IMG/VR virus record: IMGVR_UViG_3300048610_000028
Span: 1-44,765 of that record
From: a virus
Lineage: Duplodnaviria; Caudoviricetes
Strand: one strand, 5' to 3'
Length of the DNA: 44,765 nucleotides
Shown here piece after piece: positions 3,044 through 30,474 of this stretch (the stretch's first letter is position 1; each line of letters opens with the position of its first letter). The translations under genes and the position numbers were made by a program. The notes below the pieces were generated by a model. It saw nothing but the letters and a program-made list of their open reading frames with translations, was not told the origin of the DNA and did no database searches.

Positions 3044-3180
3044 CCGCCATCGCCATCCTCGCCACCGCCGCCCTGCTCCTCGCCCCGCCTGTGGTGGCGC
3101 TGTGGCGGCAACACCACCGCACCGACTGGGACCAGCAGATGCGTCGGCTCACCCGACAGCACCAGAAAGGCCACCGATGA
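3037..3180 (+). CDS. small membrane protein (47 aa)
   Basis: GTG 3037 reads MLTAIAILATAALLLAPPVVALWRQHH...; fills the gap and couples to ATG 3177. Not in the ORF track. Confidence 0.5.
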   Translation: MLTAIAILATAALLLAPPVVALWRQHHRTDWDQQMRRLTRQHQKGHR

Positions 3181-3536
3181 CCCAACGCCAGTCCATCCAG
3201 CCCACCTACGACAGCCGCGAGACCGGCCCCCGCTACCACGTCACCAGCCGCATCAACGACCGCACGGTCACGTTCCAGCAGTCGCTCGACGACCCGTTCG
3301 TGCGGCACACCGTGCACCTCGGATGGCGCGATCTCCTGCGCGGACTGCTGCGCCGCCGCCTGGCCGTCACCGTCATCGTCGGAGCCGACCCGGAGCTGAT
3401 GGACGACGTGATGGAGCTGGACGCCAACACGCTCGTGCCCGGATCGACCCGGCGCGACGAGTTCAACCAGGGGATCAACAACGCGCTCGCCTTCCACGGC
3501 AAGCGGATCATCAGCCAGGACGGAGACCCCCGATGA
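3177..3536 (+). CDS. hypothetical protein
   Basis: ATGA coupling, GAAAGG SD. Confidence 0.65.
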   Translation: MTQRQSIQPTYDSRETGPRYHVTSRINDRTVTFQQSLDDPFVRHTVHLGWRDLLRGLLRRRLAVTVIVGADPELMDDVMELDANTLVPGSTRRDEFNQGINNALAFHGKRIISQDGDPR

Positions 3537-6615: not shown

Positions 6616-7203
6616 ATGACCGAACCCACCGACCGGCCCCGCGACGGCACAGGCCGATTCATCCGCACCACCGAAACCGCCGAACGCGACGCCCAAGCAG
6701 CACGCCTCCGCAACACCGGCCTCGGCTACCGGCAGATCGCCGAGCAGCTCGGATTCGCAGACAAAGGCGACGCCTGGCGCGCCGTCCAACGCGCCCTCAC
6801 CGACATCGTCCGCGAACCCGCCGAGCAACTCCGCGCCACCGAAGCCTCACGCCTCGATGACCTGTACGTCGAGGCCCTGGAGATCCTCGAACGCGACCAC
6901 GTCATGGTCTCCCACGGCAAAGTCATCGAAGGCCCCGGCGGCCGCCCGCTCCTCGACGACGGGCCGAAACTCGCCGCCATCGACCGCGCCCGGCAGATCC
7001 GCGAGTCCTACCGCAAACTCTTCGGTGTCGATGCAGCCAAGCAGATCGACGTCGCCCTCGAACACCGCCTCGACCTCGATGCGGACCTCGTCGCCGACGC
7101 CCTCGCCGCAGCGCTCGACGCGGTCGACCTGACCGATGAGCAGCGCGCGGCGGCGCTGGCTGCGGCGCAGCAGCGGCTGGAAGCGGCAGACACCCCGGAA
7201 TGA
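6616..7203 (+). CDS. putative terminase small subunit (HTH)
   Basis: AAGGAGG SD; ERDAQAARLRNTGLGYRQIAEQLGF HTH; RLDDL...AIDRARQIRESYRKLFGVDA is typical of actinophage TerS; first gene of the late region. Confidence 0.7.
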   Translation: MTEPTDRPRDGTGRFIRTTETAERDAQAARLRNTGLGYRQIAEQLGFADKGDAWRAVQRALTDIVREPAEQLRATEASRLDDLYVEALEILERDHVMVSHGKVIEGPGGRPLLDDGPKLAAIDRARQIRESYRKLFGVDAAKQIDVALEHRLDLDADLVADALAAALDAVDLTDEQRAAALAAAQQRLEAADTPE

Positions 7204-7227
7204 TCTTGGCGGGGTGCCGTGCATCCT
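7195..7227 (+). promoter_or_regulatory. late-promoter-like motif copy 1 (CCGGAATGATCTT-N14-CATCCT), leaderless ATG 7 nt downstream
   Basis: Exact 13-mer repeated five times with a fixed distance to a -10-like hexamer. Confidence 0.75.
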
Positions 7228-7234
7228 CCCCGCC

Positions 7235-8272
7235 ATGAAGATTCTCCTGACCGGCGCCGCCGGCTTCGTCGGCTCCCACGTACTGCGACACCTGCTCGCT
7301 ACCACAGACGCCGGCATCGTCTGCCCGGTCAGCTTCCGCCACAAAGGGCTACCCGCGCGGATCGCCTCAGCCGTCCACGGCCTCGACTGGCAGCAGCGGG
7401 TCGACATCGTCCACTGGGACATGCGCGCCCCAGCCGACCCCCTGACACTGCGCACCTTCGAAGGCTGCGACGTCATCATGAACGTCGCCAGCGAAAGCCA
7501 CGTCGACCGCAGCATCGAAGATCCGGTGGGCTTCACCACCAACAACGTCGCACTGATGCTGAACATCCTGGAAGTCGCACGGAAGATCCAGCCCAGGCTG
7601 GTACTCCAGATGTCCACGGACGAGGTGTACGGCCCCGCGTACGGCACACACCGCCACAAGGAGTGGGAAGCGGTCGTCCCGTCCAACCCGTACTCCGGCT
7701 CCAAAGCAGCGCAAGAGGCGATCGCGACTGCGTACTGGCGCACCTACGGCGTTCCCTTGATCATCACCAACACCATGAACATCATCGGGGAGACACAAGA
7801 CCCGGAGAAGTTCGTCCCGATGGTCATCCGGAACCTGCGGGACCAGCAGCACATCACCGTCCACACATCCCCAGACGGCACCCCCGGGAGCCGGTTCTAC
7901 CTCCACGCCCGCAACCTCGCCGACGCGTGGCTGTTCCTGACGCAGCGGACAGAAGAAGTCCCCGACGTGATCAGCATGTACTCCGGGGGAGCCTCGCGTC
8001 CGAACCGCTTCCACATCGTGGGAGAGCGAGAGGTGGACAACGTGGCGATGGTGCACCAGGTTGCCGCCGCTATGGGCATGGAGCAGGACGCCGCCGACCG
8101 GCTGATTGTCCCGGTCAGCTTCCACGCCTCCCGCCCTGGCCATGATCTGCGGTACGCGCTCGACGGGACGTGGCTGGCGTCGATCGGCTGGAAACCGCCG
8201 GTGTCCCTGGAGGAGTCGCTGGAGCGCACGGTGAAGTGGACGCTGGAGCGCCCGGAATGGCTGGCGGTGTGA
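7235..8272 (+). CDS. rmlB: dTDP-glucose 4,6-dehydratase (RmlB-like extended SDR)
   Basis: TGAAGFVG, ASESHVDRSI, STDEVYG, PSNPYSGSK (YxxxK), RPGHDLRYALD. Confidence 0.9.
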   Translation: MKILLTGAAGFVGSHVLRHLLATTDAGIVCPVSFRHKGLPARIASAVHGLDWQQRVDIVHWDMRAPADPLTLRTFEGCDVIMNVASESHVDRSIEDPVGFTTNNVALMLNILEVARKIQPRLVLQMSTDEVYGPAYGTHRHKEWEAVVPSNPYSGSKAAQEAIATAYWRTYGVPLIITNTMNIIGETQDPEKFVPMVIRNLRDQQHITVHTSPDGTPGSRFYLHARNLADAWLFLTQRTEEVPDVISMYSGGASRPNRFHIVGEREVDNVAMVHQVAAAMGMEQDAADRLIVPVSFHASRPGHDLRYALDGTWLASIGWKPPVSLEESLERTVKWTLERPEWLAV

Positions 8273-8946
8273 CCGGCCTGTACCGCGCCGTGGTGATCCC
8301 GACTCGGGACCGGCACGACATGGTGGCCGACTGCATCAACTCCGTGGTGGACCAGGTCGACTGGGTCGTCGTCATCGACAACCTGTCCGAGCCGCCGATC
8401 GACCCGGATCCCTGGCACGGCAAGGTCAACGTGGTACCGCTGCAAATCGACCCGCCCAACATCAGCATCCTGTGGAACTTCGGCTTGGAAATCGCCGAGA
8501 CCGGCGCCACCGTGCTAGGCGCCGACCAGTGGGACGTCGCTGTCCTCAACTCCGATGTGACTGTGCCGCCCGGCTGGATCGAGACGCTGTCCGACGCGAT
8601 GCGCTCGACCACTGCCGTCCTCGCCTACCCCGACCAGCACGGCGGCACGAAACAGATCCTCCACACGAAGGCCGGACCGATCGACTTGCGCACGAGGATC
8701 ACCGGCTACGCGTTCATGATGCGCGGCGAAGTAGAGCAGCGGTTCGACGAGGACCTCGCATGGTGGTACGGCGACGACTCGGCCGACTGGTGGGCTCGCG
8801 AGCACGGCGGGGCGCTCCTCGTGCCCGACATCCCCGTCGAACACCGCTGCCCCAACGGATCCATGTACGAGCGCCCCGAGTTGCAGCAGCAGGCCGCTCG
8901 CGACCGGGAGACCTTCCGACAGAAGTGGGGGCGCACCCCATGGTGA
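8269..8946 (+). CDS. GT-A (GT2-like) glycosyltransferase
   Basis: VVIPTRDR, VVVIDNLS, VAVLNSDV, RFDEDLAWWYGDD. Confidence 0.8.
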   Translation: MTGLYRAVVIPTRDRHDMVADCINSVVDQVDWVVVIDNLSEPPIDPDPWHGKVNVVPLQIDPPNISILWNFGLEIAETGATVLGADQWDVAVLNSDVTVPPGWIETLSDAMRSTTAVLAYPDQHGGTKQILHTKAGPIDLRTRITGYAFMMRGEVEQRFDEDLAWWYGDDSADWWAREHGGALLVPDIPVEHRCPNGSMYERPELQQQAARDRETFRQKWGRTPW

Positions 8947-8960
8947 ACAGGAGCAGCACG

Positions 8961-9767
8961 ATGCGCATAGCAGTCACCGGGGGCGCCGGGTTCTTCGGCC
9001 GCGCCACCATCACCGCCGCCGAGACCGCGGGGCACGAGGTGTGGGCGTTCGACCGCGAGCTGGAGCACGACGTCCTCGGCTCCCTCGCAGCACTGGACGG
9101 GGCGGACGCGGTCATCCACCTCGCCGGCGTCCTCGGCACCAGCGAGCTGTTCGACATGCCGGAGACGGCGCTGGACGTGAACATCAAGGGCACGCTCAGG
9201 GTGTTGCAGTGGTGCCGCGACCATGGCGCCCGGTACGTCGGGGTGTCGATGCCGGACCCTTTCCCCAGCGTGTACACCGCCACCAAGGTCGCCGCGCGCA
9301 GGCTCACCACGGCGTGGCATCACGCCTACGGGCTGCCGGTGTCGACGGTCCGCGCGTTCAACGGCTACGGCCCGCATCAGCACCACGGGCCCGGGCACCC
9401 GCAGAAGATCGTGCCGACGTTCGCCCGCGCCGCGTGGGAAGGCCGGCCGCTGCCGATCTGGGGTGACGGCGAGCAGGCCATGGACCTGGTGCACGCGGAT
9501 GACGTCGGGCGGATGCTGGTGGAGGCCACGGGCCACGGCGACGACGTGACGTTTGACGCAGGCACCGGCGTGCCGGTCACGGTGAACGCCCTCGCCGCGT
9601 TTGTCCTCGACGTGACCGGCTCGACTGCGGGTGTCGAGCGCCTGCCGATGCGGCCCGGCGAGATACCCGTACAGATCACCGCCACCGGCGAGGGATGGGA
9701 GCGACTGACATGGAAACCGGAACTCGACTGGGACCGGATCGCGGAGACGATCCAGTGGTACCGGTGA
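8961..9767 (+). CDS. NAD-dependent sugar epimerase/dehydratase
   Basis: MRIAVTGGAGFFG, VIHLAG, YTATK (YxxxK), RAFNGYGP, IWGDGEQAMDLVHADDV. Confidence 0.88.
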   Translation: MRIAVTGGAGFFGRATITAAETAGHEVWAFDRELEHDVLGSLAALDGADAVIHLAGVLGTSELFDMPETALDVNIKGTLRVLQWCRDHGARYVGVSMPDPFPSVYTATKVAARRLTTAWHHAYGLPVSTVRAFNGYGPHQHHGPGHPQKIVPTFARAAWEGRPLPIWGDGEQAMDLVHADDVGRMLVEATGHGDDVTFDAGTGVPVTVNALAAFVLDVTGSTAGVERLPMRPGEIPVQITATGEGWERLTWKPELDWDRIAETIQWYR

Positions 9768-10423
9768 CCCCACGCGCCGCTGTCGCGATCGTCACGGCGA
9801 TCTTCGACGCCTACGACACGCTGAAGCCGACGCTCGCGCAGACGGGTGTGGAGGTGGACTGGGTGCTGGTCACCGACCAGGAGCCCGTCGACCCGCAGGG
9901 CTGGCGTGTCGTCGTCGAGCCGCGCCCCGAGCTGCCGCCGGTGCGTGCGGCGAAGGCGGCGAAGTGCGAGCCGTGGAAGTACACCGACGCGGCTGCCTCG
10001 ATCTGGGTGGACGCCTCGTTCCGCGTCACGTCCCCCGACTTCGCGGCCAGCGTGCTGGACTATGCGACCCCGATCGCCCAGTTCACCCACCCTTGGCGGA
10101 ACTGCCTGTATGCGGAGGCCGAAGAGATCGCCAAGCTCGGCAAGGACCCCGACGGGGCCGCCGCCTGGCAGACGCGCCGCTACCGCGAAGCCGGGCACCC
10201 GACCGGCTGGGGGCTGTGGGCGTCCGGCGTCATCGCCCGCAAGCACACGGCCGCGGTCAAGCGGATGGGCGCAGCGTGGGCGCGCGAGGTCGACAACGGG
10301 TCAGCGCGGGATCAGGTGTCGCAGCCGTACGTGCTGCGCGCCGCCAAGCTGAAGCCGCGCGCACTGCCGGGCACGCACCTGGCGAACGCGTGGCTCAAGT
10401 ACGAGGGAAGCGGACGGCACTGA
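9764..10423 (+). CDS. DUF616/TOD1-MUCI70-like glycosyltransferase
   Basis: VTAIFDAYDTLK, VLVTD, SIWVDAS, HPWRNCLYAEAE, SARDQVS. Confidence 0.75.
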   Translation: MTPRAAVAIVTAIFDAYDTLKPTLAQTGVEVDWVLVTDQEPVDPQGWRVVVEPRPELPPVRAAKAAKCEPWKYTDAAASIWVDASFRVTSPDFAASVLDYATPIAQFTHPWRNCLYAEAEEIAKLGKDPDGAAAWQTRRYREAGHPTGWGLWASGVIARKHTAAVKRMGAAWAREVDNGSARDQVSQPYVLRAAKLKPRALPGTHLANAWLKYEGSGRH

Positions 10424-10707
10424 TGAGCGAGCAGACACCGAGCGTGGGACGCATCGTCCACTACCGCTCGTACGGGACTCCGGGCGGCGAGTACACCTCG
10501 CAGTGCCGGGCCGCGATCATCACCGAAGTCCTTCCCCTTGAAGGCGACGACGCAGCACAGGCAGAGATCGAGCAGTGGGACGAAAGCCAGCGCTGCCGTG
10601 TCAGTCTCGCGGTACTCAACCCGACCGGAATGTTCTTCAACACCGGCCTGTTCCAGGACGAGGCCCACAAGCAGGGCGGCACGTGGCACTGGCCGGAGCG
10701 TGTGTGA
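10423..10707 (+). CDS. small phage protein (PSVGRIVHY family)
   Basis: TGATG coupling; PSVGRIVHY...RAAIITEV...GTWHWPERV is a widespread phage small-protein pattern. Confidence 0.75.
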   Translation: MSEQTPSVGRIVHYRSYGTPGGEYTSQCRAAIITEVLPLEGDDAAQAEIEQWDESQRCRVSLAVLNPTGMFFNTGLFQDEAHKQGGTWHWPERV

Positions 10708-11147
10708 TGCCCAGCATCGAGATCGGCGGCGGCAGGCTCGTCCAGGCCGGATGGATCAACCTCGACCCGCAGCACGGTGAAGGCCCATGGCGGCGCGTAG
10801 CCCAAGGCGAACCGTGGCCGACCGGCGACCACACCATCGACGGGCTACGCGCCTCCCACGTCATGGAGCACATCCCCGCCGGAGCCGAACGCATCACCGT
10901 CATGAACGAAGCCCACCGCGTCCTGAAGCCCGGCGGCGTGTTCGAGATCCGCGTACCCAACGCCCTCTCCGGAACGTGGCACGCGTACGCCGACCCCACA
11001 CACGTCAGCTTCTGGTGCATCGAGTCGTTCCACTACCTCGACGGCACCAAAGCCGCCCACGCCGACTACGGACTCCGCCCGTGGAAGACGCTAGAGCTCC
11101 GCATCCAGGGCGATAATGAGGTCTTGTGGAAGGGGACGCCGCGATGA
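10707..11147 (+). CDS. class I SAM-dependent methyltransferase
   Basis: IEIGGG...GWINLD, ASHVMEHI, EAHRVLKPGGVFEIRVP, ADPTH. Confidence 0.88.
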   Translation: MPSIEIGGGRLVQAGWINLDPQHGEGPWRRVAQGEPWPTGDHTIDGLRASHVMEHIPAGAERITVMNEAHRVLKPGGVFEIRVPNALSGTWHAYADPTHVSFWCIESFHYLDGTKAAHADYGLRPWKTLELRIQGDNEVLWKGTPR

Positions 11148-11257
11148 CTCTAGAAAAGTGCAGCTGCGAAGACGAGGCCGACATCACGCGGATGTGTGAT
11201 CAGGGGCGCGTCTATCTGTGTGTTCGGTGCGATGCGGTCAGGGCGGAAGCACGGTGA
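11144..11257 (+). CDS. small Cys-rich protein (37 aa)
   Basis: ATGA and GTGA couplings on both sides; CSC...C...CVRC. Not in the ORF track. Confidence 0.45.
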   Translation: MTLEKCSCEDEADITRMCDQGRVYLCVRCDAVRAEAR

Positions 11258-11631
11258 GCGCCATCAAATTGGATGTCGTCGTCCGCAACGCCCTGGTCTC
11301 AGCGATGCCCGAGGCGCTTGGCGGCAAGCTGAGCGGGCCTCTCCAGGAAGAGCACTACGCGGCGCTCACTAGCGCGGTCGTCACTGCTATATACGACAAC
11401 GGGACTGCCCGTATTCGTGATCTGGAGGCGCAGAACGCGGAGCTACGGCGCCACCGCGTCAAGCTCATCGAAGTCGGGGCACAGATAGCGCGCGAGCTTG
11501 AGGCACGTGGCGCTCGGGGAGAAGACAGCGCAGACTGGTCGCCGCCATGCCAGTCACCGGCGTGTGGTCTGAGCCTGTCGGCCTGCGTCTGCGGCAGCCC
11601 ATTCGGCGATGGCGAGGGCACGCCACGGTGA
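11254..11631 (+). CDS. hypothetical protein
   Basis: GTGA coupling; coiled coil plus Cys-rich tail. Confidence 0.55.
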   Translation: MSAIKLDVVVRNALVSAMPEALGGKLSGPLQEEHYAALTSAVVTAIYDNGTARIRDLEAQNAELRRHRVKLIEVGAQIARELEARGARGEDSADWSPPCQSPACGLSLSACVCGSPFGDGEGTPR

Positions 11632-11858
11632 GCGCACGCGACGACCTGTTCCGGGACATCTGGGACCAGCGGACAACCGCAGAGAAGAACGCCCTCATCA
11701 ACGCCCACCGCGACGAGGTAGCGCTAGAGATCGGACGCGACGCACTACGAGACGGCCTGGTGCCAACCCTGAACCGTCTCGTCGGCGAGACGAACGCCCG
11801 AAAGCTGCTGGCCGACTTCCTCGACCAGGTCGACCCGACGAAGGACACGCAGCGGTGA
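11628..11858 (+). CDS. hypothetical protein
   Basis: GTGA couplings on both sides. Confidence 0.6.
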   Translation: MSARDDLFRDIWDQRTTAEKNALINAHRDEVALEIGRDALRDGLVPTLNRLVGETNARKLLADFLDQVDPTKDTQR

Positions 11859-12223
11859 GTGAGAAGCCTTGCCCGTTCTGCGAGATCGTCGCCGGACGTG
11901 AGTTCGGTGAGATCGTCCACGAGTGGCATGACACATTCGCGATACACCCGCTCAACCCCGTGACACCGGGACACGTCCTAGTGATCCCAAAGGTGCATGT
12001 CCCGGACTTCACCACCGCGCCCGAGGTCTCTGGCCGGGCCATGGCCTGCGCCGCAGAGCTGGCACCTCTGGTCTTCCCTGGACACGACGACTGGAACCTG
12101 ATCACCAGCAAGGGCCGTGCCGCCACACAGTCCGTCTTCCACCTGCACCTGCACCTCGTGCCCCGATCCGAAGGCGACGGCTTGGCTCTCCCTTGGCACA
12201 GCGGGAAGGGCGGGAAGCGGTGA
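11855..12223 (+). CDS. HIT-family nucleotide hydrolase (copy 2)
   Basis: CPFCEIVAG, PLNPVTPGHVLVIPKVH, QSVFHLHLHLVPR. Confidence 0.92.
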   Translation: MSEKPCPFCEIVAGREFGEIVHEWHDTFAIHPLNPVTPGHVLVIPKVHVPDFTTAPEVSGRAMACAAELAPLVFPGHDDWNLITSKGRAATQSVFHLHLHLVPRSEGDGLALPWHSGKGGKR

Positions 12224-12786
12224 GCGGGCCGGTGGTGACGGTCGTTGTGCCGTACCACCCGGCCCGCGTGAAGAACGGCATGCTCGCCCGGGCCGTCGCC
12301 TCCATCCGCGCGCAGACCATCCCGCACGAGCTCATCACCGTCGAAGACACCCGCCGTGAGGGCGCAGCCGCCACCCGGCAACGCGGCCTCGACCAAGTCA
12401 CCACCGAATGGGTCGCGTTCCTCGACTCTGACGACGAGATGGACCCGACCCACCTGGAGCAGCTGCTCGCCTGCGCCGACCAGACCGGAGCTGACTACGT
12501 GTACCCGTGGTTCCGCGTCGTCGGCGGCAAGGACCCGTTCCCGATGTTCTTCGGCAAGCCATGGGACGACGACCATCCGCACTCCACCACCATCACGATC
12601 CTCGTGCGGACCGGGCTCGCGAAGTTGGTCGGCTTCGACGGCGCCGGGGAAGACTTCCGGTTCACGAAGGGCTGCGTCCGCGAAGGCGCACAGATCGTCC
12701 ACCACCCGGCTCGTACGTGGACGTGGGTTCACCATGGTCGCAACAGCAGCGGCCGACCCGACCGAGGCGACGCCCGCACCCGCTGA
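12220..12786 (+). CDS. GT2-family glycosyltransferase
   Basis: VTVVVPY, AVASIRAQT, GAAATRQRGL, WVAFLDSDDE (DxD), GFD...EDF. Confidence 0.88.
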   Translation: MSGPVVTVVVPYHPARVKNGMLARAVASIRAQTIPHELITVEDTRREGAAATRQRGLDQVTTEWVAFLDSDDEMDPTHLEQLLACADQTGADYVYPWFRVVGGKDPFPMFFGKPWDDDHPHSTTITILVRTGLAKLVGFDGAGEDFRFTKGCVREGAQIVHHPARTWTWVHHGRNSSGRPDRGDARTR

Positions 12787-12855
12787 ACCAGTGCGCATTC
12801 ACCGGCTCGGTCAACTATTCTGAAACGTTCTGCCAGCCACAGCAGGAGACCACCC

Positions 12856-13488
12856 ATGGCAAGCGAGCAGCACCTTCAGAAGATCGATTTCATGATCCAT
12901 GCGAACGTGACAGCCGTCATCCCGACAATCCCCACAGAACACCGACAGACGACCCTAGAACGCGCCCTGAACAGCGTGCGCGACCAGGACCACCCAGTGG
13001 CCAGCAACATCATCGTCGCCACAGACACCACCCACGCCGGATCAGCAGCCACCCGCAACCGCGGCCTCGCCGAGGTCAAGACCGAGTGGACAGCGTTCCT
13101 TGACGACGATGACGAATGGCTCCCGCACCACACGCGCGTCCTCCTGGAAGCGGCGTACGACTCCGGCGCCGATGTGGTCTACCCCTGGTTCCGTGTCGTC
13201 TCACCCCGCGCGTTCGATCCGTTTCCCGGAGTCTTCCGGCGCCCTTTCAAGGCCGAGCTGCTGCGGGAGCAGAACTACATCCCCACCACCGTGTTGGCCC
13301 GTACCGAGCTGGTGCGCGACGTCGGCGGCTTCGAACCGTATGGGGACCAGCAAGAGAGCGCCTGCGACGACTGGGGCCTGTGGCTGAAGCTCCTCGACGC
13401 CGGGGCCAACTTCCATCACGTGCCGATCGTGTCGTGGCTGTGGCACTGGCACGGAAAGCACACCTCAGGACTCGGAGACCGCTGGTGA
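12856..13488 (+). CDS. GT2-family glycosyltransferase (paralog of the preceding gene)
   Basis: VIPTIP, ALNSVRDQ, SAATRNRGL, WTAFLDDDDEW, VGGF...DDWGLWLKL. Confidence 0.9.
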   Translation: MASEQHLQKIDFMIHANVTAVIPTIPTEHRQTTLERALNSVRDQDHPVASNIIVATDTTHAGSAATRNRGLAEVKTEWTAFLDDDDEWLPHHTRVLLEAAYDSGADVVYPWFRVVSPRAFDPFPGVFRRPFKAELLREQNYIPTTVLARTELVRDVGGFEPYGDQQESACDDWGLWLKLLDAGANFHHVPIVSWLWHWHGKHTSGLGDRW

Positions 13489-13853: not shown

Positions 13854-15275
13854 ATGACCTTGGATGATCGGGCACAGATCGCGCAGCGCGCCGCCACCGC
13901 GCTCGCCACCCGACTCCAAACACCCCGCTGGAAACCACTACCCCACCAAATACCGCCAGGAGGTGATTGGTACGGCTGGCTTCTGCTAGCCGGCCGATTA
14001 CGCGGAGCCGGGAAGACCGACGCCTGCGCCGAGTACATCGCCCGGCACGTCGCCGGACCACCCTGCCTACCGGGACCCGTGCCGCACTGGATCGGGATCA
14101 TTGCCCCCACCCAGGGCGACGCTGTCACCGCCTGCGTCTCCGGGCCGTCCGGCATCAAAGCCCACGACCCGAGCGCGTCCGGCCCAATCACCACGGCAGG
14201 CGGCACAGTGGTGCGGTGGCCGAACGGATCACAGGCAAAGCTCTACGGGGCGAATAGTCCAGAAGATATTGAAAGGCTGCGGGCTGGGGGAAATACGTGC
14301 TGCGCCTGGTTGGAGGAGTTTGCGGCGTGGCGCCATATGCAGCAGTCCTTCGACCAACTCCGCTTCGGGCTCCGCTCTGGCCCGCGCCCGCACTGGGTCG
14401 CCTCCACCACACCGAAGCCCAAGCCGCTACTGAAGCGGCTCATGCAGGGCGGGATCGCGAACGTCGCCACCACGACGGCGACGATGTACGACAACCCGCA
14501 CCTGCCCCTGCACATCCGGGAGATGCTGGAGGACGCGTACGCGGGTACCGACCTCGGCGAGCAGGAGCTGTACGGCCGGATCCTCGACGAGATCAAGAAC
14601 GCCCTGTGGCGACGCGCCACGATCGCCGCAGGCCGGATGCATGCCGAGGACCTGCCGGACATCATCCGCACCACGGTCGGCGTCGACCCATCAGGCGGGG
14701 CCGGGGAGCAGGGCATCGTCGTCACTGCGAAGTCTGGGCTGCTGCTTCCCGGGATTCTTCCCGGCCCCCGCGAGGACTCGGACGGGTCAGCCCCCACGCG
14801 GCAACCGCGTCCGCAGCACCACGGCTTCGTCCTCGACGACCGCACCTGCCAGCTACCACCGGAGGGCTGGGGGCAGCGCGCGGTGCAGGCCGCGATCGAC
14901 TGGGAGGCCGATGATCTGTGCGTAGAAGTCAACTACGGCGGGGACCAAGCGATCGCCGTAATCCATACGGCGCTGGAGAAGGCCGGCGTTGACATCCCGG
15001 TGAGGAAGGTCCGGGCCACCCACGGCAAGGCGGTGCGGGCGCAGCCAGTTGCAGCGCTCAGCGCACAGGGGCGGATGCATCACGCTGGGACGTTCCCAGA
15101 GCTGGAGGATCAGTTGGCGACCTGGTACCCGGAGTTGGGCTGGTCACCGGATCGTCTCGACGCTGCCGTATGGGGGCCATGGCACATGAAGCTGGTGGGA
15201 ACGGTGTCGCGCGGTCAGGGCTCGTTGGGTGGTGATCTGGCCAGAAAGCAGATCGCCGGGGGCCGCATACGCTGA
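13854..15275 (+). CDS. terminase large subunit
   Basis: WLLLAGR(LR)GAGKT Walker A, AWLEEFAAW Walker B, STTPKP coupling motif, VGVDPS nuclease, EVNYGGD, SPDRLDA. Confidence 0.95.
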   Translation: MTLDDRAQIAQRAATALATRLQTPRWKPLPHQIPPGGDWYGWLLLAGRLRGAGKTDACAEYIARHVAGPPCLPGPVPHWIGIIAPTQGDAVTACVSGPSGIKAHDPSASGPITTAGGTVVRWPNGSQAKLYGANSPEDIERLRAGGNTCCAWLEEFAAWRHMQQSFDQLRFGLRSGPRPHWVASTTPKPKPLLKRLMQGGIANVATTTATMYDNPHLPLHIREMLEDAYAGTDLGEQELYGRILDEIKNALWRRATIAAGRMHAEDLPDIIRTTVGVDPSGGAGEQGIVVTAKSGLLLPGILPGPREDSDGSAPTRQPRPQHHGFVLDDRTCQLPPEGWGQRAVQAAIDWEADDLCVEVNYGGDQAIAVIHTALEKAGVDIPVRKVRATHGKAVRAQPVAALSAQGRMHHAGTFPELEDQLATWYPELGWSPDRLDAAVWGPWHMKLVGTVSRGQGSLGGDLARKQIAGGRIR

Positions 15276-18451: not shown

Positions 18452-20236
18452 ATGGCCTGGTGGAACGCCTTCACCCGACGCGGCACACCCACACCCAAGC
18501 TGCTCCCCACCCGCACCGAACAGCAGCCCAACGCGATCACCGCCGCAGCCGCACCCGTCAAAGACCCCCGAACCCAACTCATCCGCACCACCGACACCTG
18601 GCAAGAAGAAGCCTGGCAATACCACGAAGACCTCGGCGAATTCCGCTACGCCGTCGACTGGGAAGCCAAAATGCTCTCCCGCGTCCGGCTCTACGCCGCG
18701 AAGCTAGAGCCCGGCCAAGACGAACCCCAACGCGCCGAAACCGGAACCGCCGTCGAACTGATGACCAGCATGGCCGGAGGCGTCGCCGGACAAGCCGCCA
18801 TCATGGACGGCCTCGGCACCCAACTCGCCGTCCCCGGCGAGGGCTACCTCATCATCGAAAACATCGGCGGCATCGAACACTGGTCCGTCCGCTCCACCGA
18901 CGAAGTCACAGCCAAACGCGGCCACTACGAAGTCCTCGACGAAAACTCGGTCAACACCGGCAACACATGGCGGCCCCTCAGCCGCGACTCGCTGCCACCC
19001 CTGCGGGTATGGCGACCGAACAAGCGCTACCACCACATCGCCGACTCCCCGGCCCGCGCCGCACGGGCGACGATGCGGGAGCTGGAGCTGGTCAATCGGC
19101 ACATCGTCGCCCAGTACCTCTCCCGTCTGGCCAGCGCGGGTGTGGTGATCTTCCCCGACGAGGTGACCTTCCCCGTCCGCGAGGAGTTCGCCGACGCGCC
19201 GGACCCTTTTATGGCCGAGTGGATCGAGATAGCGGCCGAAGCGATCCGCACTCCCGGCACCGCTGCGGCCACCATCCCGCTCCCGCTGAAGCTCCCCGGC
19301 GAGTGGATCGAAAAGGTCAAGCACGTCGACTTCACACTGAAGATCGACGAGAAGATCATTGAGAAGCGCGAGTCCGCGATCAAGCGACTGGCGTCCCAGC
19401 TCAACATCCCGCCCGAAGTCCTCCTCGGCATGGGCGATTTGAACCATTGGAACGCGTGGGCTGTTGACGAGACGTCCCTGAAGGTCAACGTCGCGCCCGA
19501 CGCCGAACTGATCTGCCAGGCCCTCACCACCGGCTACCTCCAGCCCCGCCTGAAAGCCTCGGGTGTGGAGGACTGGGCTTCCTGGGTTGTCTGGTACGAC
19601 ATGTCCGAGCTGACGCTGCGCCCGGACCGCTCGGACGACGCGTTCCTGGCGTACGACCGGCTGGAGATCAACGGGACGGCGCTGCGCCGTGAGACCGGCT
19701 TCGACGAAGGCGACAAACCCACCGACGACGAGCTGAAGGAACAGGCCCTCAAGGTCATCATCAAAACCCTGCCGTCCAGTGCCGGGTCCGCACTGTCCAC
19801 GCTGCTCGGCGAGCAGGTCGAGATCACACCGGTGGCCGCTGCCCGGCCCGACGAAGTACCCGAGGTGACAGAGGAGCCGGAGCCGGAGCGCACACCACCA
19901 GAAGCACCGTCACCCGACGACCGGGCCGCAGCAGCGCAAGCCCGGGCCGACCGCATGCTCAAGCAGGCCCGCGCCCCGCACGCCGTCCGCTTCTCCATCG
20001 GCCAGCCAGGCGAGATCCTCCACCCGCCCGACTGCACCAAGCACGCCTACTCCTGCCCGTACACCCACGCCGCGCAACGCCTCGACAAAACCCCACGCCC
20101 CGGGACCAGCGGCACGTATGAGGCACGCCTGGACGCGTTCGGCCGGCTCACCATCGGCAAACCCACACCCCATCTGGACACTGCTGGACTGATCACGACT
20201 CGGAGCCGCAATGGCCACGCTCACAGCCGCCGCTGA
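18452..20236 (+). CDS. portal protein
   Basis: WQEEAWQYHEDLGEFRYAVDW, LAVPGEGYLI, RVWRPNKR...ADSPARA, LLGMGDLNHWNAW; typical actinophage portal; position after terL. Confidence 0.9.
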   Translation: MAWWNAFTRRGTPTPKLLPTRTEQQPNAITAAAAPVKDPRTQLIRTTDTWQEEAWQYHEDLGEFRYAVDWEAKMLSRVRLYAAKLEPGQDEPQRAETGTAVELMTSMAGGVAGQAAIMDGLGTQLAVPGEGYLIIENIGGIEHWSVRSTDEVTAKRGHYEVLDENSVNTGNTWRPLSRDSLPPLRVWRPNKRYHHIADSPARAARATMRELELVNRHIVAQYLSRLASAGVVIFPDEVTFPVREEFADAPDPFMAEWIEIAAEAIRTPGTAAATIPLPLKLPGEWIEKVKHVDFTLKIDEKIIEKRESAIKRLASQLNIPPEVLLGMGDLNHWNAWAVDETSLKVNVAPDAELICQALTTGYLQPRLKASGVEDWASWVVWYDMSELTLRPDRSDDAFLAYDRLEINGTALRRETGFDEGDKPTDDELKEQALKVIIKTLPSSAGSALSTLLGEQVEITPVAAARPDEVPEVTEEPEPERTPPEAPSPDDRAAAAQARADRMLKQARAPHAVRFSIGQPGEILHPPDCTKHAYSCPYTHAAQRLDKTPRPGTSGTYEARLDAFGRLTIGKPTPHLDTAGLITTRSRNGHAHSRR

Positions 20237-23200
20237 CGGCTCGCACATGTCCGGCGCGATGATCGCGCTCATGCCCACGCCGGAGGATGCGGAGCGGCTG
20301 GCGATCGAGGGCGGCGAGCCTGCCAACGAACTCCACCTCACCCTATGGTTCCTCGGCGACGCCGCACCGTGGACAGAGGACCAGCGCAACGAACTCATTG
20401 GCCTCATCCGGGCCCGCGCCGCCTCACTCTCCGGTCCGGTCCACGCATACGCATTCGGCGTCAACAACTGGAACCCCGGCAGCGAAGACCCCGTTTGGGT
20501 GTGGGCCATTGGTGACGACCGTGATGCCACCGACGAGGATGCCTCGCTGCACGAAGCCCGCAACATGCTCGCCATCGACGCGCTGGAGAGCACCCATGAA
20601 CGGCCCGAAACACCCACCCAGCATTCACCATGGGTGGCCCACACGACCGGCGCCTACAGCTCAGACTCATGGCCGCTGGAGCCAATGACGGAGCGGCTTG
20701 GCCCGATCACCTTCGACCGCATCCTGGTCGCGTTCGCCGGTGACTACACCGACATTCCCCTCGGCGAAGGTGCGATGACGGCGGCCGCCCAAGGCCCGCT
20801 GCGCCGCAAGCCCACCGACATCGAGCTCGCGTCCCGTGCCGACTTCGCGCAGATGGACAAGGCATGGCGTGAAGTCGGCGACAGCACCGTGGAGGCGTGG
20901 GCCGGCATCCAGCAGGCGCAGCGGGAGCAGATCACCGCCGCCGTGCAGGCCGCCGCCGAGGCAGACGACTTGGACCGGCTCGACACCCTGACCGTCGATA
21001 CCGACGACGGGGCCAGGCTGCTCATCGCCCGCATGATCGCCTACGCGCGGGAGGCGGGCGAGGCGCAGCAGGCCGAGGCAGAAGCCCAGGGCGTCGACGT
21101 CCCGGAGTGGTCGCTGGACGATGAGGCGCTCACCGCCGCCGCGATTAGGGACCGGCTGCGGCAGGTCGGCCGGGCTGCGGCGCGGGTGCTGGGGGTTGGG
21201 CTGGTGCAGTCGGCGGTGCGGCAGGCGATGCAGGTGTGGGGGTCGGGCTCCGCCGCGCAGGTGGCCGCCGCGGTGGACGAGCACCTCGATGGCCTGTCCG
21301 GTGCGGCGGTCGAGGAGCAGGTGGGCGCGGCCATGAGCGCGGCGCAGAACGAGGGCCGCATGGCTGTGCTGGCGGTCGCGCCGCCCGCCGAGTATTTCGC
21401 GAGCGAGGCGCTAGATCGGTCGTCATGTAAGCCCTGTCGGGACGTCGACGGCACTCGCTACACCACGCTGCCCGATGCCCGTACCGCGTACCCGTCTGGT
21501 GGCTACGTGAACTGCCTAGGTGGCCCACGGTGCCGGGGAACGCTCGTCACCGTCTGGCCCACAGCTGATGAGCAGGCAGCCACCGGAATGATCTTGGCCG
21601 CGTCCGGGGACACAATGCGGCCGACCACCCACGAAGGAGGCGGCACCGTGCCGTACGACGTCGTACAAGACCACCCCGACTGTGCGGCTGACACGCCATG
21701 GGCCGTCACCAAGCAGGACAGCGGCGAGCTGATGGGCTGCCACGGCACCGAGGAAGGCGCCCAAGCCCAGCAGCGTGCGCTGTACGCCGAGGACGGCGAC
21801 GAGCCGCCCAAGAAGTCCGACGACGACATGGACTACACGGGCAAGACCGCCCCGTGGCGTGGCCCCCTCGTCGTCGAGGGCAAGGTCACCGGAGACGGCC
21901 GGGAGTTCGCACCCGAGGCGCTCACCTGGGCCGACCTGCCCATCCCGCTGCGGTGGAACAAGGAAGACTCCCACGGCGGTGAGCCGCACACCGTCGCGGT
22001 CAACGTCGGCCGTATCGACAGCATCTGGCGCGACGGCGACCTCATCATGGGCGAAGGCGTTCTGGACCTGTCTGATGAGGACGGGCGCCGCGTCCACGCC
22101 AAGATCGAAGGCAAGTACCTGCGGGGCGTGTCCATCGACGCCGACTCCATCGCCGACGCTGATGTCGAGTTCGTGTGGCCCGACGACGCCAACGACGGCA
22201 TGGACGACGAGGGCGGCGACCTGCTGGAGATGCTGTTCGCCCAGCCGGAGAAGATGATTTTCCACGGCGGCCGGATCCGCGCCGCCACCCTCGTGGACAT
22301 CCCCGCTTTCGCCGAGGCGTACATCGCGCTCCTCGACGAGGACGGCGCGATCATCGCCGGGGGCCAGCCGCTCACGGAGGAAGAGCGCCAGGCTCTGACG
22401 GTGCAGCAGCTCGGAGCGGTCGGAACCCACGACACCGCCACCACCGACAGCGAATGGAGCGAAGGACCGAACTCCAAGCGGCTGAACTCCCCACTGACCC
22501 TGGCCAAGGTGCGTGCCGCGTACGGCTGGTACGACGGCAGCGCCGTCGAGGACGGTGAGTTGCCGAAGTCAGCGGCGAAGTTCCTCCACCACGAGATCAA
22601 CGAAGACGGCACGGTCGGCCCGGCGAATCTCACCGCCTGTTCCGCGACGATCGGCGCCCTCCACGGCGCTCGCTCCGGTACCAACATCCCCGACGCCGAC
22701 CGGCGCGGTGTGTACGACCACGTCGCCAAGCACCTGCGCGACGCAGGTAAAGAGCCGGAGCCGTTCCGCTCTCTGTCCGCAGTCACTGCGTCAGCCCCGG
22801 CGCATCCGGCGATGACTGGCCTGTGGAAGCCTCCCGCCGAGTGGTTCAGCGATCCGGAGCTGCCGTTCCACTGCGGCATCGTCGTCACCGATCAGGGGCG
22901 GCTATACGGGCATGCGGCGCCGTGGGGCTCCTGCCACATCGGGATCGACGGAACGTGCGTGACGGCTCCGCGAGAGAACGACCACTCCCACTACATGACC
23001 GGGGAGACCGTCTGCGACGACGGCTCGCGGGTAGCGATCGGTCAGATCACCGTAGGTACCGGGCACGCCCCGCTGCACTATGGAGCGCAAGCAGCAGCGG
23101 AACACTACGACAACACCGGTACAGCGGTCGCCGATGTAGCCGTGGGCAACGACAAACACGGCATCTGGGTGGCGGGCGCGATCCGCCCGAACGCGGACCC

Positions 23201-23480
23201 GCTGAGCGTGTACGAGCTGCGCGCTTCGGGCCGGGTGTCGGGTGACTGGCGGCGGCGCGGCGGGCAGTTGCGCCTGATTGGGCTGCTGGGTGTCAACGTC
23301 GCCGGTTTCCTGGAGGAGTCGAAGATGCGGGCACTGGTGTCCTCGGGGCAGCCTCAGACGCTGGTGGCGGCTGGCGTGCTGAAGCAGCAGTGGAGCCTGT
23401 CGCAGGACGACGTAGAGCGTCAGGCGGTGCGGATTGTGATGCGGATGCTGTCGCGTCGTGTCCACCCCGGGGGGAGGTGA
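20211..23480 (+). CDS. fusion: 2H phosphoesterase (2'-5' RNA ligase/Acb1-like) + MuF-like minor head domain + capsid maturation protease-like region
   Basis: ELHLTLWFLG and WVAHTTGAY (two HxT motifs); ALDRSSCKPC...NCLGGPRCRGT (MuF-type Cys motif); TGDGREF...LPIPL...VGRIDSI...LRGVSID...IRAATLVDIPAF (prohead protease-like). Confidence 0.8.
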   Translation: MATLTAAADGSHMSGAMIALMPTPEDAERLAIEGGEPANELHLTLWFLGDAAPWTEDQRNELIGLIRARAASLSGPVHAYAFGVNNWNPGSEDPVWVWAIGDDRDATDEDASLHEARNMLAIDALESTHERPETPTQHSPWVAHTTGAYSSDSWPLEPMTERLGPITFDRILVAFAGDYTDIPLGEGAMTAAAQGPLRRKPTDIELASRADFAQMDKAWREVGDSTVEAWAGIQQAQREQITAAVQAAAEADDLDRLDTLTVDTDDGARLLIARMIAYAREAGEAQQAEAEAQGVDVPEWSLDDEALTAAAIRDRLRQVGRAAARVLGVGLVQSAVRQAMQVWGSGSAAQVAAAVDEHLDGLSGAAVEEQVGAAMSAAQNEGRMAVLAVAPPAEYFASEALDRSSCKPCRDVDGTRYTTLPDARTAYPSGGYVNCLGGPRCRGTLVTVWPTADEQAATGMILAASGDTMRPTTHEGGGTVPYDVVQDHPDCAADTPWAVTKQDSGELMGCHGTEEGAQAQQRALYAEDGDEPPKKSDDDMDYTGKTAPWRGPLVVEGKVTGDGREFAPEALTWADLPIPLRWNKEDSHGGEPHTVAVNVGRIDSIWRDGDLIMGEGVLDLSDEDGRRVHAKIEGKYLRGVSIDADSIADADVEFVWPDDANDGMDDEGGDLLEMLFAQPEKMIFHGGRIRAATLVDIPAFAEAYIALLDEDGAIIAGGQPLTEEERQALTVQQLGAVGTHDTATTDSEWSEGPNSKRLNSPLTLAKVRAAYGWYDGSAVEDGELPKSAAKFLHHEINEDGTVGPANLTACSATIGALHGARSGTNIPDADRRGVYDHVAKHLRDAGKEPEPFRSLSAVTASAPAHPAMTGLWKPPAEWFSDPELPFHCGIVVTDQGRLYGHAAPWGSCHIGIDGTCVTAPRENDHSHYMTGETVCDDGSRVAIGQITVGTGHAPLHYGAQAAAEHYDNTGTAVADVAVGNDKHGIWVAGAIRPNADPLSVYELRASGRVSGDWRRRGGQLRLIGLLGVNVAGFLEESKMRALVSSGQPQTLVAAGVLKQQWSLSQDDVERQAVRIVMRMLSRRVHPGGR
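21583..21616 (+). promoter_or_regulatory. late-promoter-like motif copy 3, intragenic (CCGGAATGATCTT-N15-CACAAT)
   Basis: Exact 13-mer inside the 1089-aa ORF, upstream of GAAGGAGG and an in-frame GTG at 21648. Confidence 0.65.
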
Positions 23481-29594: not shown

Positions 29595-29993
29595 GTGTCA
29601 GTGTTCACCGTGTCGACGAGCTTCACCCTCAACAGGTCCCGCATCGAGCGGTTGCTGCGCCTTCCCGGAGGGCTGGTGTACCGCAACATGACGCGACGGG
29701 TGCGCCGTGCCGAAGCTGAGGCGAAGCGTCTTGCGCCCACAGCCAGCGTGGCCCGACAGATCACCTCGTCGGTCGACCGCGGTCCTGGTGGAGAGTTCCG
29801 TGGCACGATCCGCAGCGGCCATCCCGCCAGCATCTACCTCATCAACGGCACGAGGCCTCACATCATTAGGCCAGTGCGGGCGCAGGCTCTCCGCTTCGTG
29901 GTCGGCGGTCGCGTGGTGTACGCGAAAGTCGTACATCATCCGGGTACACAAGCGCAGGACTATCTGCGGCCTGCGCTGCGGGCCGCGCTCTGA
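29595..29993 (+). CDS. neck protein (HK97 gp10-like)
   Basis: Basic; GTRPHIIRP...ALRF...VHHPGT...YLRPAL. Confidence 0.75.
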   Translation: MSVFTVSTSFTLNRSRIERLLRLPGGLVYRNMTRRVRRAEAEAKRLAPTASVARQITSSVDRGPGGEFRGTIRSGHPASIYLINGTRPHIIRPVRAQALRFVVGGRVVYAKVVHHPGTQAQDYLRPALRAAL

Positions 29994-29996
29994 ACC

Positions 29997-30029
29997 CCGG
30001 AATGATCTTGGCGGGTGGGTGCCTACCGT
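29997..30029 (+). promoter_or_regulatory. late-promoter-like motif copy 4, leaderless ATG 7 nt downstream
   Basis: CCGGAATGATCTT-N14-TACCGT-N7-ATG(30037). Confidence 0.8.
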
Positions 30030-30036
30030 CCACCAC

Positions 30037-30474
30037 ATGACGACACCCATCCGCGACTTCACCGAGAAGCACGAACGGCTCCTCTTCCGCATCGACGACG
30101 ACGTCTTCGAAGCCGCACGCGTCCTCCCCGGGAAAACCCTCGCCCGGTTCGCCTCCCGCTTTAGCGACATCGAAACCGCCACCGTCGACAAGCAATTGGA
30201 CGCGTTCGCTGACGCACTCAGCATGGTCCTCCTGCCCGAATCCAACAGCCGCTTCCAGAAGCGCCTGGAAGACCTGGAAAACCCCATCGGACTAGAGCAG
30301 GCGTCCAACGTCATCACCTGGCTCCTGGAGCACTACGGCATCCGCCCTACCCAGCCGTCCTCGCCCTCGTCCACTGGGCCAGCCAGCCCGGCGTCTGGCA
30401 CGAACTTGACGGACGCTGCGCAGCCGCAGGCGTCGATCCCGGCGACCTTCCAGCCGACCGCTTCCTCAACCTGA
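30037..30474 (+). CDS. tail assembly chaperone (short form)
   Basis: Directly upstream of the tape measure gene; ends in an S/P-rich tail after YGIRPT. Confidence 0.8.
   Translation: MTTPIRDFTEKHERLLFRIDDDVFEAARVLPGKTLARFASRFSDIETATVDKQLDAFADALSMVLLPESNSRFQKRLEDLENPIGLEQASNVITWLLEHYGIRPTQPSSPSSTGPASPASGTNLTDAAQPQASIPATFQPTASST

Follow-up and report, generated by a model that had tools for sequence, protein, structure and literature searches.

Why should the ATP-binding loop of a soil phage's large terminase be interrupted by two additional codons, the first of them the rare leucine codon TTA? The question is raised by the IMG/VR virus record IMGVR_UViG_3300048610_000028 (Duplodnaviria; Caudoviricetes), whose entire stretch of 44,765 bases was analyzed and is referred to here as the window. 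In its large terminase gene, positions 13989 to 14018 read GCC GGC CGA TTA CGC GGA GCC GGG AAG ACC, encoding AGRLRGAGKT, a form of the Walker A motif in which the TTA (13998 to 14000) is in frame, constitutes codon 49 of a 473-amino-acid open reading frame (ORF), and is flanked by CGA and CGC. An earlier note on this DNA had read the AGR-LR-GAGKT arrangement just as it was found here, except that it began the motif at 13986, which is the preceding CTA leucine codon. It had also proposed that ribosomes hop from CGA to CGC at the UUA and thereby restore the P-loop. Sequence comparison favors that proposal, through the CGA/CGC design of the site and through relatives with inserts of 5 and 8 bases; the hop itself is deduced. 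We consider it probable, at roughly 60%, that the TTA-CGC at 13998 to 14003 is the in-frame member of a TTA-led series of 5, 6, and 8 bases and that ribosomes hop from CGA to CGC at the UUA, which would give the canonical AGRGAGKT. A hop over the insert is likely because the 5- and 8-base versions in relatives break the reading frame.

Distribution of the insert among terminase homologs

The terminase has 2283 homologs at an E value of ≤0.001, and the motif was tallied in the best 120 of them. An uninterrupted [A/G]GRG[A/S]GK[S/T] is present in 107 of the 120 and AGRLRGAGKT in 3 (P0002, P0003, and P0027), bearing out the claim that LR is an addition to the usual family motif. Two homologs (P0105 and P0107) begin with ...RSITRGAGKS, three have AGRMAGKT, and in five the site is uncovered, two of these beginning within an intein and three being N-terminally short gene calls. 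The 90% clusters of P0002, P0003, and P0027 add four LR sequences, one of them identical to the window protein. The LR proteins thus comprise at least seven distinct sequences, with identity down to 69%. At the DNA level, nine canonical IMG/VR relatives read GGN CGC/CGT/CGG GGN GCN GGN AAR at this site; the window therefore carries six extra bases, which can be placed as CG[ATTACG]C or equally as TTA CGC. A degenerate search pattern for AGRLRGAGKT that allowed any leucine codon gave 8 hits in genome contigs, 7 in metagenome contigs, and 0 in viral contigs, and all 15 were fortuitous, in unrelated frames, none of them in a terminase. As a separate observation, the AGRMAGKT clade (L022 and L024 to L030; P0033, P0091, and P0102) has CGC GGC replaced by an AT-rich hexamer, AGA, AGG, or CGA followed by ATG, a second rare-codon oddity at the same two codons as the insert site.

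Codon usage in the window was counted in a crude, non-overlapping, GC3-picked set of 50 ORFs (13,212 codons), which is not a gene prediction. TTA makes up 2 of the 1107 leucine codons in this set. The earlier note had noticed no in-frame TTA other than that of the terminase, and the rarity of the codon stands, with the correction that a second TTA occurs at 29866. That codon lies in a doubtful ORF (29707 to 30474) that has no PHROG match and overlaps the preceding neck/tail gene (29595 to 29993), and it probably sits upstream of the real start of the ORF. CGA accounts for 63 of the 1008 arginine codons.

Frame-breaking and in-frame versions in related DNA

The closest look at a frame-breaking version came from IMG/VR locus L036, in record G001, whose protein is 85% identical to that of the window. 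The DNA there reads GGC CGA TTA GT GGA GCT GGG AAA ACG, a 5-base version of the insert. Frame 0 runs through ...PPGGDWYGWLLLAGRL and then into nonsense up to a stop, and the -1 frame reads ...GAGKTDACAEYIARH... through to the end of the gene. G001 has 68,379 bases, is placed by IMG/VR in the class with direct terminal repeats, has 127 identical bases at both ends, and contains one terminase locus, split over the two frames. The 48 codons before the insert and the 423 after it are unbroken and match the window in number, and the downstream codon differences from the window are 142 synonymous and 62 non-synonymous. A scan of viral contigs for WYGWLLLAGR followed by TTA found the G001 contig only. 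G001 also has three more in-frame TTA codons (44090, 55981, and 67623), in small ORFs of 76, 59, and 147 amino acids.

Terminase DNA was found in 24 sequencing runs, eight of which were compared with the window. The differences given below are those listed for the aligned pieces away from their ends, and 10 further difference rows stand outside the list. Record 1 of run X2 is a 736-nucleotide (nt) contig with a depth of 7.7 that is identical to window positions 13854 to 14000 and has one base missing at 14001. It reads CGA TTA GT GGG GCT GGA AAA ACG, again a 5-base, frame-breaking form. After the missing base, the listed changes from the window are 10 at third positions plus 1 replacement, read by hand. 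X2 and L036 differ from each other after the insert at about 11 of 90 bases, 10 of the changes being synonymous (hand count), and the 5-base form thus occurs in two diverged lineages.

The 8-base form was seen in the second of two X14 contigs, which is soft-clipped at 14022 and reads T CGA TTA CC CGT GGT GCC GGA AAG TCG AAG. Its downstream frame translates as SITRGAGKSK, the exact N terminus of P0105 and P0107, and the presence of the 8-base form at the site accounts for the odd N termini of those two proteins. P0105 and P0107 are 98% identical to each other, and each is 67% identical to the window protein. They appear to be alleles of the LLMAGR lineage with UUA, CC, and a landing CGT. N-terminal fragment ORFs of the frame-broken alleles were found nowhere among proteins of 35 to 114 amino acids.

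The six-base insert itself recurs in four other runs. The X6 contig (177 nt) has 0 differences from the window and carries the insert in the same form. The X3 contig (18,189 nt) shows 34 differences in 447 bases, with 0 gaps, and reads CGA TTA CGC. The X14 contig (1317 nt; depth, 4.4) shows 22 differences in 175 bases, with 0 gaps; it reads CGA TTA CGT and has the change A13958G. The X8 contig (151 nt; depth, 2.3) shows 7 differences in 151 bases, with 0 gaps, and reads CGA TTA CGC GGA TCC. X4, X7, and X11 provided only canonical or partial pieces at the site. Because identical or near-identical inserts are found in contigs of these four runs, the insert is not an assembly slip.

Altogether there are six distinct insert-bearing DNA versions, namely, the window (identical in X6), X3, X14, X8, L036 in G001, and X2 record 1. 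CGA TTA is present in all six, and no other leucine codon is found among them. The earlier note had named LR commonly encoded by non-TTA codons as an outcome that would speak against its idea, and no such coding was seen in these six versions. The constancy extends beyond the two codons. X14 has no listed difference from the window over 13959 to 14002, nor has X3 over 13923 to 14011, and both differ from the window by 8 to 13% around those segments. Canonical alleles vary at third positions across the codons that are invariant in X3 and X14.

Sequence elements linked to the insert

Two further elements lie just upstream of, or overlap, the insert. The first is an internal Shine-Dalgarno-like run. 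The energy of its predicted duplex with the 16S 3' end is -18.5 kcal/mol for the window run and -16.8 for that of L036, compared with -4.2 to -10.2 in 17 loci without the insert. At the protein level, all insert alleles read PPGGDW here, and the others read PPPGDW or PPPGNW. PGGDW was found in 8 of 8 insert alleles versus 2 of 112 others, and all five independent pairs on the gene tree agree with the association (sign test, p = 0.0625). The two exceptions, P0073 and P0077, are canonical alleles with PGGDW and no insert; their PGGDW could reflect loss of the insert.

The second element is a predicted 17-bp RNA hairpin whose 3' arm contains the proposed take-off codon and the UUA. The fold has an energy of -27.6 kcal/mol (z = -5.44), and 0 of 200 shuffled sequences were as stable. 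All six inserted bases, in one register 13996 to 14001, pair with positions 13963 to 13968. G-U pairs make up four of the 17, by our own reading of the sequence against the structure, and the antisense strand folds much more weakly (-14.2; z = -1.47). L036 folds into the same hairpin (-23.5; z = -2.76), and no such hairpin was obtained with three canonical relatives (z = -0.65, +2.76, and +1.22). The aspartate codon in this region is GAC in all 12 canonical or RM loci that have aspartate here and GAT in the window and L036.

Table 1. Positions of the terminase gene and of the elements at and upstream of the insert
Feature	Position in window	Strand	Basis
Large terminase gene, 473 amino acids	13854..15275	+	ORF; Pfam Terminase_6N and Terminase_6C; PHROG terminase families
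Internal Shine-Dalgarno-like run AGGAGGTGAT, 10-base match, from codons CCA GGA GGT GAT	13958..13967	+	Predicted anti-Shine-Dalgarno duplex
17-bp RNA hairpin	13963..14001	+	Predicted; 5' arm 13963-13980 (A13972 unpaired), loop 13981-13984, 3' arm 13985-14001
CGA (Arg48), proposed take-off codon	13995..13997	+	6/6 insert-bearing DNA versions; 0/9 canonical loci
TTA (Leu49), rare codon proposed to stall the ribosome	13998..14000	+	In frame; kept in 6/6 insert-bearing DNA versions
CGC (Arg50), proposed landing codon; TTA and CGC make up the six extra bases 13998-14003	14001..14003	+	CGC in window, X3, and X8; CGT in X14 and the 8-base allele
GGA GCC GGG AAG ACC (GAGKT), remainder of Walker A; decoding is proposed to resume at GGA	14004..14018	+	Sequence; homolog tally

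Proposed decoding of the site

In the mechanism that we propose, a ribosome would come to stand with CGA in the P site and UUA in the A site at a time when charged tRNA-Leu(UAA) is scarce; this is the bldA tRNA of Streptomyces, the sole tRNA for UUA there, and its scarcity is established. The peptidyl-tRNA-Arg would then un-pair from CGA. An inosine-bearing tRNA-Arg reads CGU, CGC, and CGA, and this tRNA is assumed for the take-off and landing pair. The mRNA would advance by 6 bases, and both the Shine-Dalgarno match and the hairpin, as it refolds in the wake of the ribosome, may aid this step. Once the tRNA had paired anew, with CGC (or CGT), the glycine codon, GGA in the window, would be the next to be decoded. 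The hop product of the 6- and 8-base forms would be AGRGAGKT. Were UUA decoded normally, the window would yield a full-length LR enzyme (RLRGAGKT), and the 5- and 8-base alleles would yield a truncated product. The product ratio would follow the supply of the rare tRNA and hence the growth stage of the host. No tRNA gene was found in the window or in G001, so no phage-borne tRNA-Leu(UAA) is present in either.

Several points weigh against a hop. Every statement about decoding is an inference from sequence. The insert in the window is in frame, so a full-length enzyme needs no hop. Since the landing codon also specifies arginine, the read-through LR product keeps RGAGKT and may be active; T4 gp17, too, reportedly has neither glycine nor alanine as the first Walker A residue. 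The 5-base alleles would offer AGT as the landing triplet, which matches the arginine anticodon at only 2 of 3 positions; this weakens the case for the same hop in those alleles, where a -1 shift to AGR-IS-GAGKT may occur. The Shine-Dalgarno run ends 27 bases 5' of the codon for take-off, a greater distance than known frameshift stimulators have. PGGDW could accompany the insert through mere physical linkage in a recombining tract of about 45 bases, which would mimic coevolution, and the sign test gave p = 0.0625 on 5 pairs. Depth is low for the X14 (4.4) and X8 (2.3) contigs, several contigs are short, and the codon reading was made on DNA other than that of P0002, P0003, P0027, P0126, and P0129. 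Finally, the Streptomyces host is a putative one.

Some of these points would fit a plain, tolerated two-residue insertion. Under that explanation, AGRLRGAGKT is made and works, and the TTA is a relic that at most makes expression bldA dependent, with no hop. The in-frame insert and the contiguous RGAGKT agree with this, as do the persistence of the LR form in at least seven distinct sequences down to 69% identity and the Pfam match, which still runs from residue 50 onward. However, the rarest leucine codon should then drift to codons such as TTG or CTG, yet TTA is kept in 4 of 4 six-base DNA versions, and CGA is fixed too while neighboring third positions change. Such an insertion accounts neither for the relatives in which 5 or 8 bases break the frame at this position nor for the occurrence of the Shine-Dalgarno run and hairpin only with the insert. 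We regard a plain insertion as unlikely.

Spread of the insert, recombination, and inteins

A gene tree was made from 120 rows (109 canonical, 3 RM, and 8 insert alleles), using only columns downstream of the P-loop. Window duplicates (P0123 and P0128) stood outside it, as did any row that lacked the motif or in which it was followed by <330 residues (P0018, P0019, P0080, P0093, P0119, P0105, P0107, P0122, and P0124). The insert alleles need at least five gains or losses on this tree, and the starred branches force all five. Insert alleles adjoin canonical alleles that are 98% identical downstream. X2 record 1 matches the window base for base as far as 14000 and diverges from it by about 12% beyond that point, which places a recombination joint exactly at the insert. 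Taken together, the tree pattern, the joint of X2 at 14000, and the core that stays unchanged in X3 and X14 point to recombination that moves a small block. Alternatively, strong selection could keep the block constant.

The block of about 45 bases comprises the Shine-Dalgarno run, the hairpin, CGA-UUA, and the gap. As a tentative extension of the hop, and one that we hold to be rather unlikely, the block might be a portable recoding cassette that recombination carries from one terminase allele to another and that protects the Walker A DNA against the homing nuclease of the intein. With the in-frame form, the terminase would then have two states, canonical by the hop when the bldA tRNA is scarce and LR when it is plentiful, and the phage would in this way read the stage of its host.

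Inteins occur at three sites of this terminase family. At the Walker A site, P0093 and P0119 begin inside an intein that ends in ...HHN/SGKT (the slash marks the junction). A second site precedes the CVAWLEEF stretch (L020, about 3100 to 3200: ...LLVSN/CVAWLEEF), and a third lies near the C terminus (residues about 440 to 690 of P0002 and P0121: ELEDQL/CLVAG...VHN/CTWYPELGW).

These inteins bring up another explanation, that the insert acts as a scar or shield at the DNA level, the AT-rich bases persisting since they break the target of the Walker A intein homing endonuclease or of a host restriction enzyme, with decoding secondary. The Walker A intein of P0093 and P0119 lies one codon 3' of the insert site. 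The scatter of the insert alleles (at least five changes) beside canonical alleles 98% identical downstream is in keeping with a shield, as is the recombination joint of X2 at the insert. By our own reading, canonical GCC GGC CGC GGC GCC GGC holds several 6-base GC palindromes, and the gap of T4 gene 60 is described as part of a mobile element (bioRxiv 10.1101/2022.08.31.505936). However, no nuclease gene lies beside the window terminase, and a synonymous change would break a restriction site equally well. A shield does not explain the constant TTA after CGA or the G-U pairs of the hairpin, which work only in sense RNA, and it does not compete with the hop, since both could hold at once. As a sufficient account we find it improbable.

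Internal initiation was considered for the frame-broken relatives, in which translation might start after the Shine-Dalgarno run at a TTG (13967 to 13969 in the window) in the -1 frame and lead into GAGKT in the 5-base alleles. The -1 frame of L036 does read LVRLATASRPISGAGKTDACAEY... from the TTG to the end of the gene, and the Shine-Dalgarno match is very strong. However, the spacing from GGAGG to TTG is only 3 bases, and the product would lack the N-terminal 38 residues, which are conserved, as well as the hydrophobic strand that precedes the P-loop, both of which are intact in frame 0 of L036. For the window this start was rejected, as the frame gives a 96-amino-acid nonsense ORF, yet the same Shine-Dalgarno run is kept. 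Internal initiation is thus very improbable. An assembly or sequencing artefact, for which it could be said that the window is a metagenome-derived virus record, is scarcely credible given that the same six bases occur in X3, X6, X8, and X14, from runs of different studies, and in seven distinct database proteins.

The terminase gene and its surroundings

The gene qualifies as a large terminase of the Pfam Terminase_6 (T4-like) type, with the N-terminal ATPase and C-terminal RNase H-like nuclease domains both above the Pfam cut-offs. Terminase_6N (PF03237) matched residues 50 to 254 with an E value of 3.4e-18 and 66.5 bits (cut-off, 22), and Terminase_6C (PF17289) matched with an E value of 6.1e-05 and 23.5 bits (cut-off, 22.6). 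A PDB sequence search with the window terminase returned nothing at an E value of ≤0.01, so the insert is not mappable onto a solved P-loop. The public gene call for this terminase (P0123; 312 amino acids) begins at Met162, and the whole P-loop region (within 13854 to 14336) was therefore missed by annotation. Other N-terminally short gene calls among relatives are P0018, P0019, P0080, P0122, and P0124.

The window has a G+C content of 64 to 73% and an actinophage-typical layout with a sugar-modification cluster, large terminase, portal, capsid, tail, tape measure, endolysin, WhiB-like, and FtsK/SpoIIIE-like genes. The cluster directly upstream of the terminase (6616 to 13488) has PHROG matches to a nucleotide-sugar epimerase, four glycosyltransferase-like genes, and a methyltransferase. 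Downstream, a 1089-amino-acid ORF (20211 to 23477) has an RNA-ligase-like match at its N terminus (residues 2 to 186) and portal-, MuF-, and head-protease-type matches at residues 516 to 1064. Named homologs of the terminase, with 66 to 81% identity, come from Streptomyces genomes, and the best matches among isolated phages are Streptomyces phages mu1/6 and OnionKnight, at about 43%. These two sets of matches suggest a Streptomyces-type host.

Comparison with known recoding systems

The system nearest to this site is the candidate UUA-triggered bypass in the terminase of Streptomyces phage phiHau3, which reportedly goes back to Smith et al. in 2013. The phiHau3 record gives its two sites as GGC-TTACTCCGGT-AAG and TCT-TTAACGGTCC-ACG. 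Each insert opens with UUA and closes with a landing codon that is a synonym of the take-off codon. The earlier note had mentioned that UUA-associated bypassing was proposed for Streptomyces phage terminases, and such a proposal exists in the survey by Antonov et al. (2023; PMC10732093). That survey describes two 10-base, UUA-led, frame-breaking inserts in the phiHau3 terminase (g6/g7/g8) and 7-base inserts in the StrepC.1 and S. catenulae prophages (PMC10732093). It reports UUA in only 3 of 100 terminase genes and UUA-led bypass gaps in three terminase genes, at four sites of one family, all frame-breaking (PMC10732093). The junction peptide of the first phiHau3 site is described there as detected by mass spectrometry in E. 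coli, with UAA replacing UUA, and the same text states that scarce tRNA-Leu(UAA) (bldA) controls TTA-containing Streptomyces genes (PMC10732093). Literature searches on UUA-led terminase bypass returned no report later than this survey.

The window site resembles those of phiHau3 in several respects. The insert opens with the triplet UUA, which immediately follows the codon for take-off (CGA TTA in the window; GGC TTA and TCT TTA in phiHau3), and the take-off and landing codons form a synonymous pair (CGA/CGC in the window and CGA/CGT in X14 and the 8-base form; GGC/GGT and TCT/TCC in phiHau3). The 5-base alleles depart from this design, the triplet before the resume codon being AGT. The insert is absent from most homologs (107 of 120 canonical), in which its flanks are contiguous, a stem-loop and a Shine-Dalgarno-like run lie upstream, here by prediction only, and the gene is again a terminase of a Streptomyces-type phage. 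The differences are also clear. The phiHau3-type inserts have 10 and 7 bases and break the frame, whereas that of the window has 6 and is in frame, frame-breaking forms occurring only in the relatives of the window. The two terminases are unrelated by BLASTP (best E value, 5); Pfam Terminase_6 was found in the window only, and a Pfam search with the three phiHau3 terminase pieces returned no family. The window has no spacer between UUA and the landing codon (2 bases in the 8-base form), its Shine-Dalgarno run ends 27 bases upstream, and the inserts here form a 5-, 6-, and 8-base allelic series at one site, patchy over the gene tree.

In T4 gene 60, refolding of a 5' stem-loop on the exiting mRNA is proposed to drive forward movement (bioRxiv 10.1101/2024.12.09.627546), and the gap is described as part of a mobile element (bioRxiv 10.1101/2022.08.31.505936). 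The window site shares with it matched take-off and landing codons, a 5' stem-loop, a Shine-Dalgarno-like element, and a proposed link to mobile DNA. In contrast, the T4 gap has 50 bases versus 6 in the window, and its take-off codon is followed by a UAG stop rather than by the rare sense codon UUA. T4 requires a nascent-peptide signal, and its hop is experimentally established, that of the window being a proposed one. In E. coli, slow-codon hops make the same in-frame 6-base move between matching codons across a slowly decoded codon. Kane et al. in 1992 reportedly described an in-frame two-codon hop in bovine placental lactogen made in E. coli, and Weiss et al. in 1987 are said to have described +6 hops over stop codons. 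Such hops are low-level errors in engineered or overexpressed genes, whereas the window site is natural and conserved and has linked RNA signals. As with bldA targets, a single TTA stands in frame in a genome from which the codon is otherwise kept out. However, a classic TTA is decoded late, and here non-decoding would give a product, in view of the frame-breaking sister alleles.

To these systems the locus adds a phiHau3-like design in a terminase family unrelated to that of phiHau3, an insert that falls within the ATP-binding loop, and a natural 5-, 6-, and 8-base series at one site. Its in-frame member is invisible to frameshift finders and gene callers, and conserved two-residue insertions with a rare codon may be hidden recoding sites. 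If the hop occurs, one gene would make two full-length proteins two residues apart, at a ratio set by the supply of a single tRNA, and production of the terminase would be tied to the supply of that rare tRNA by the host.

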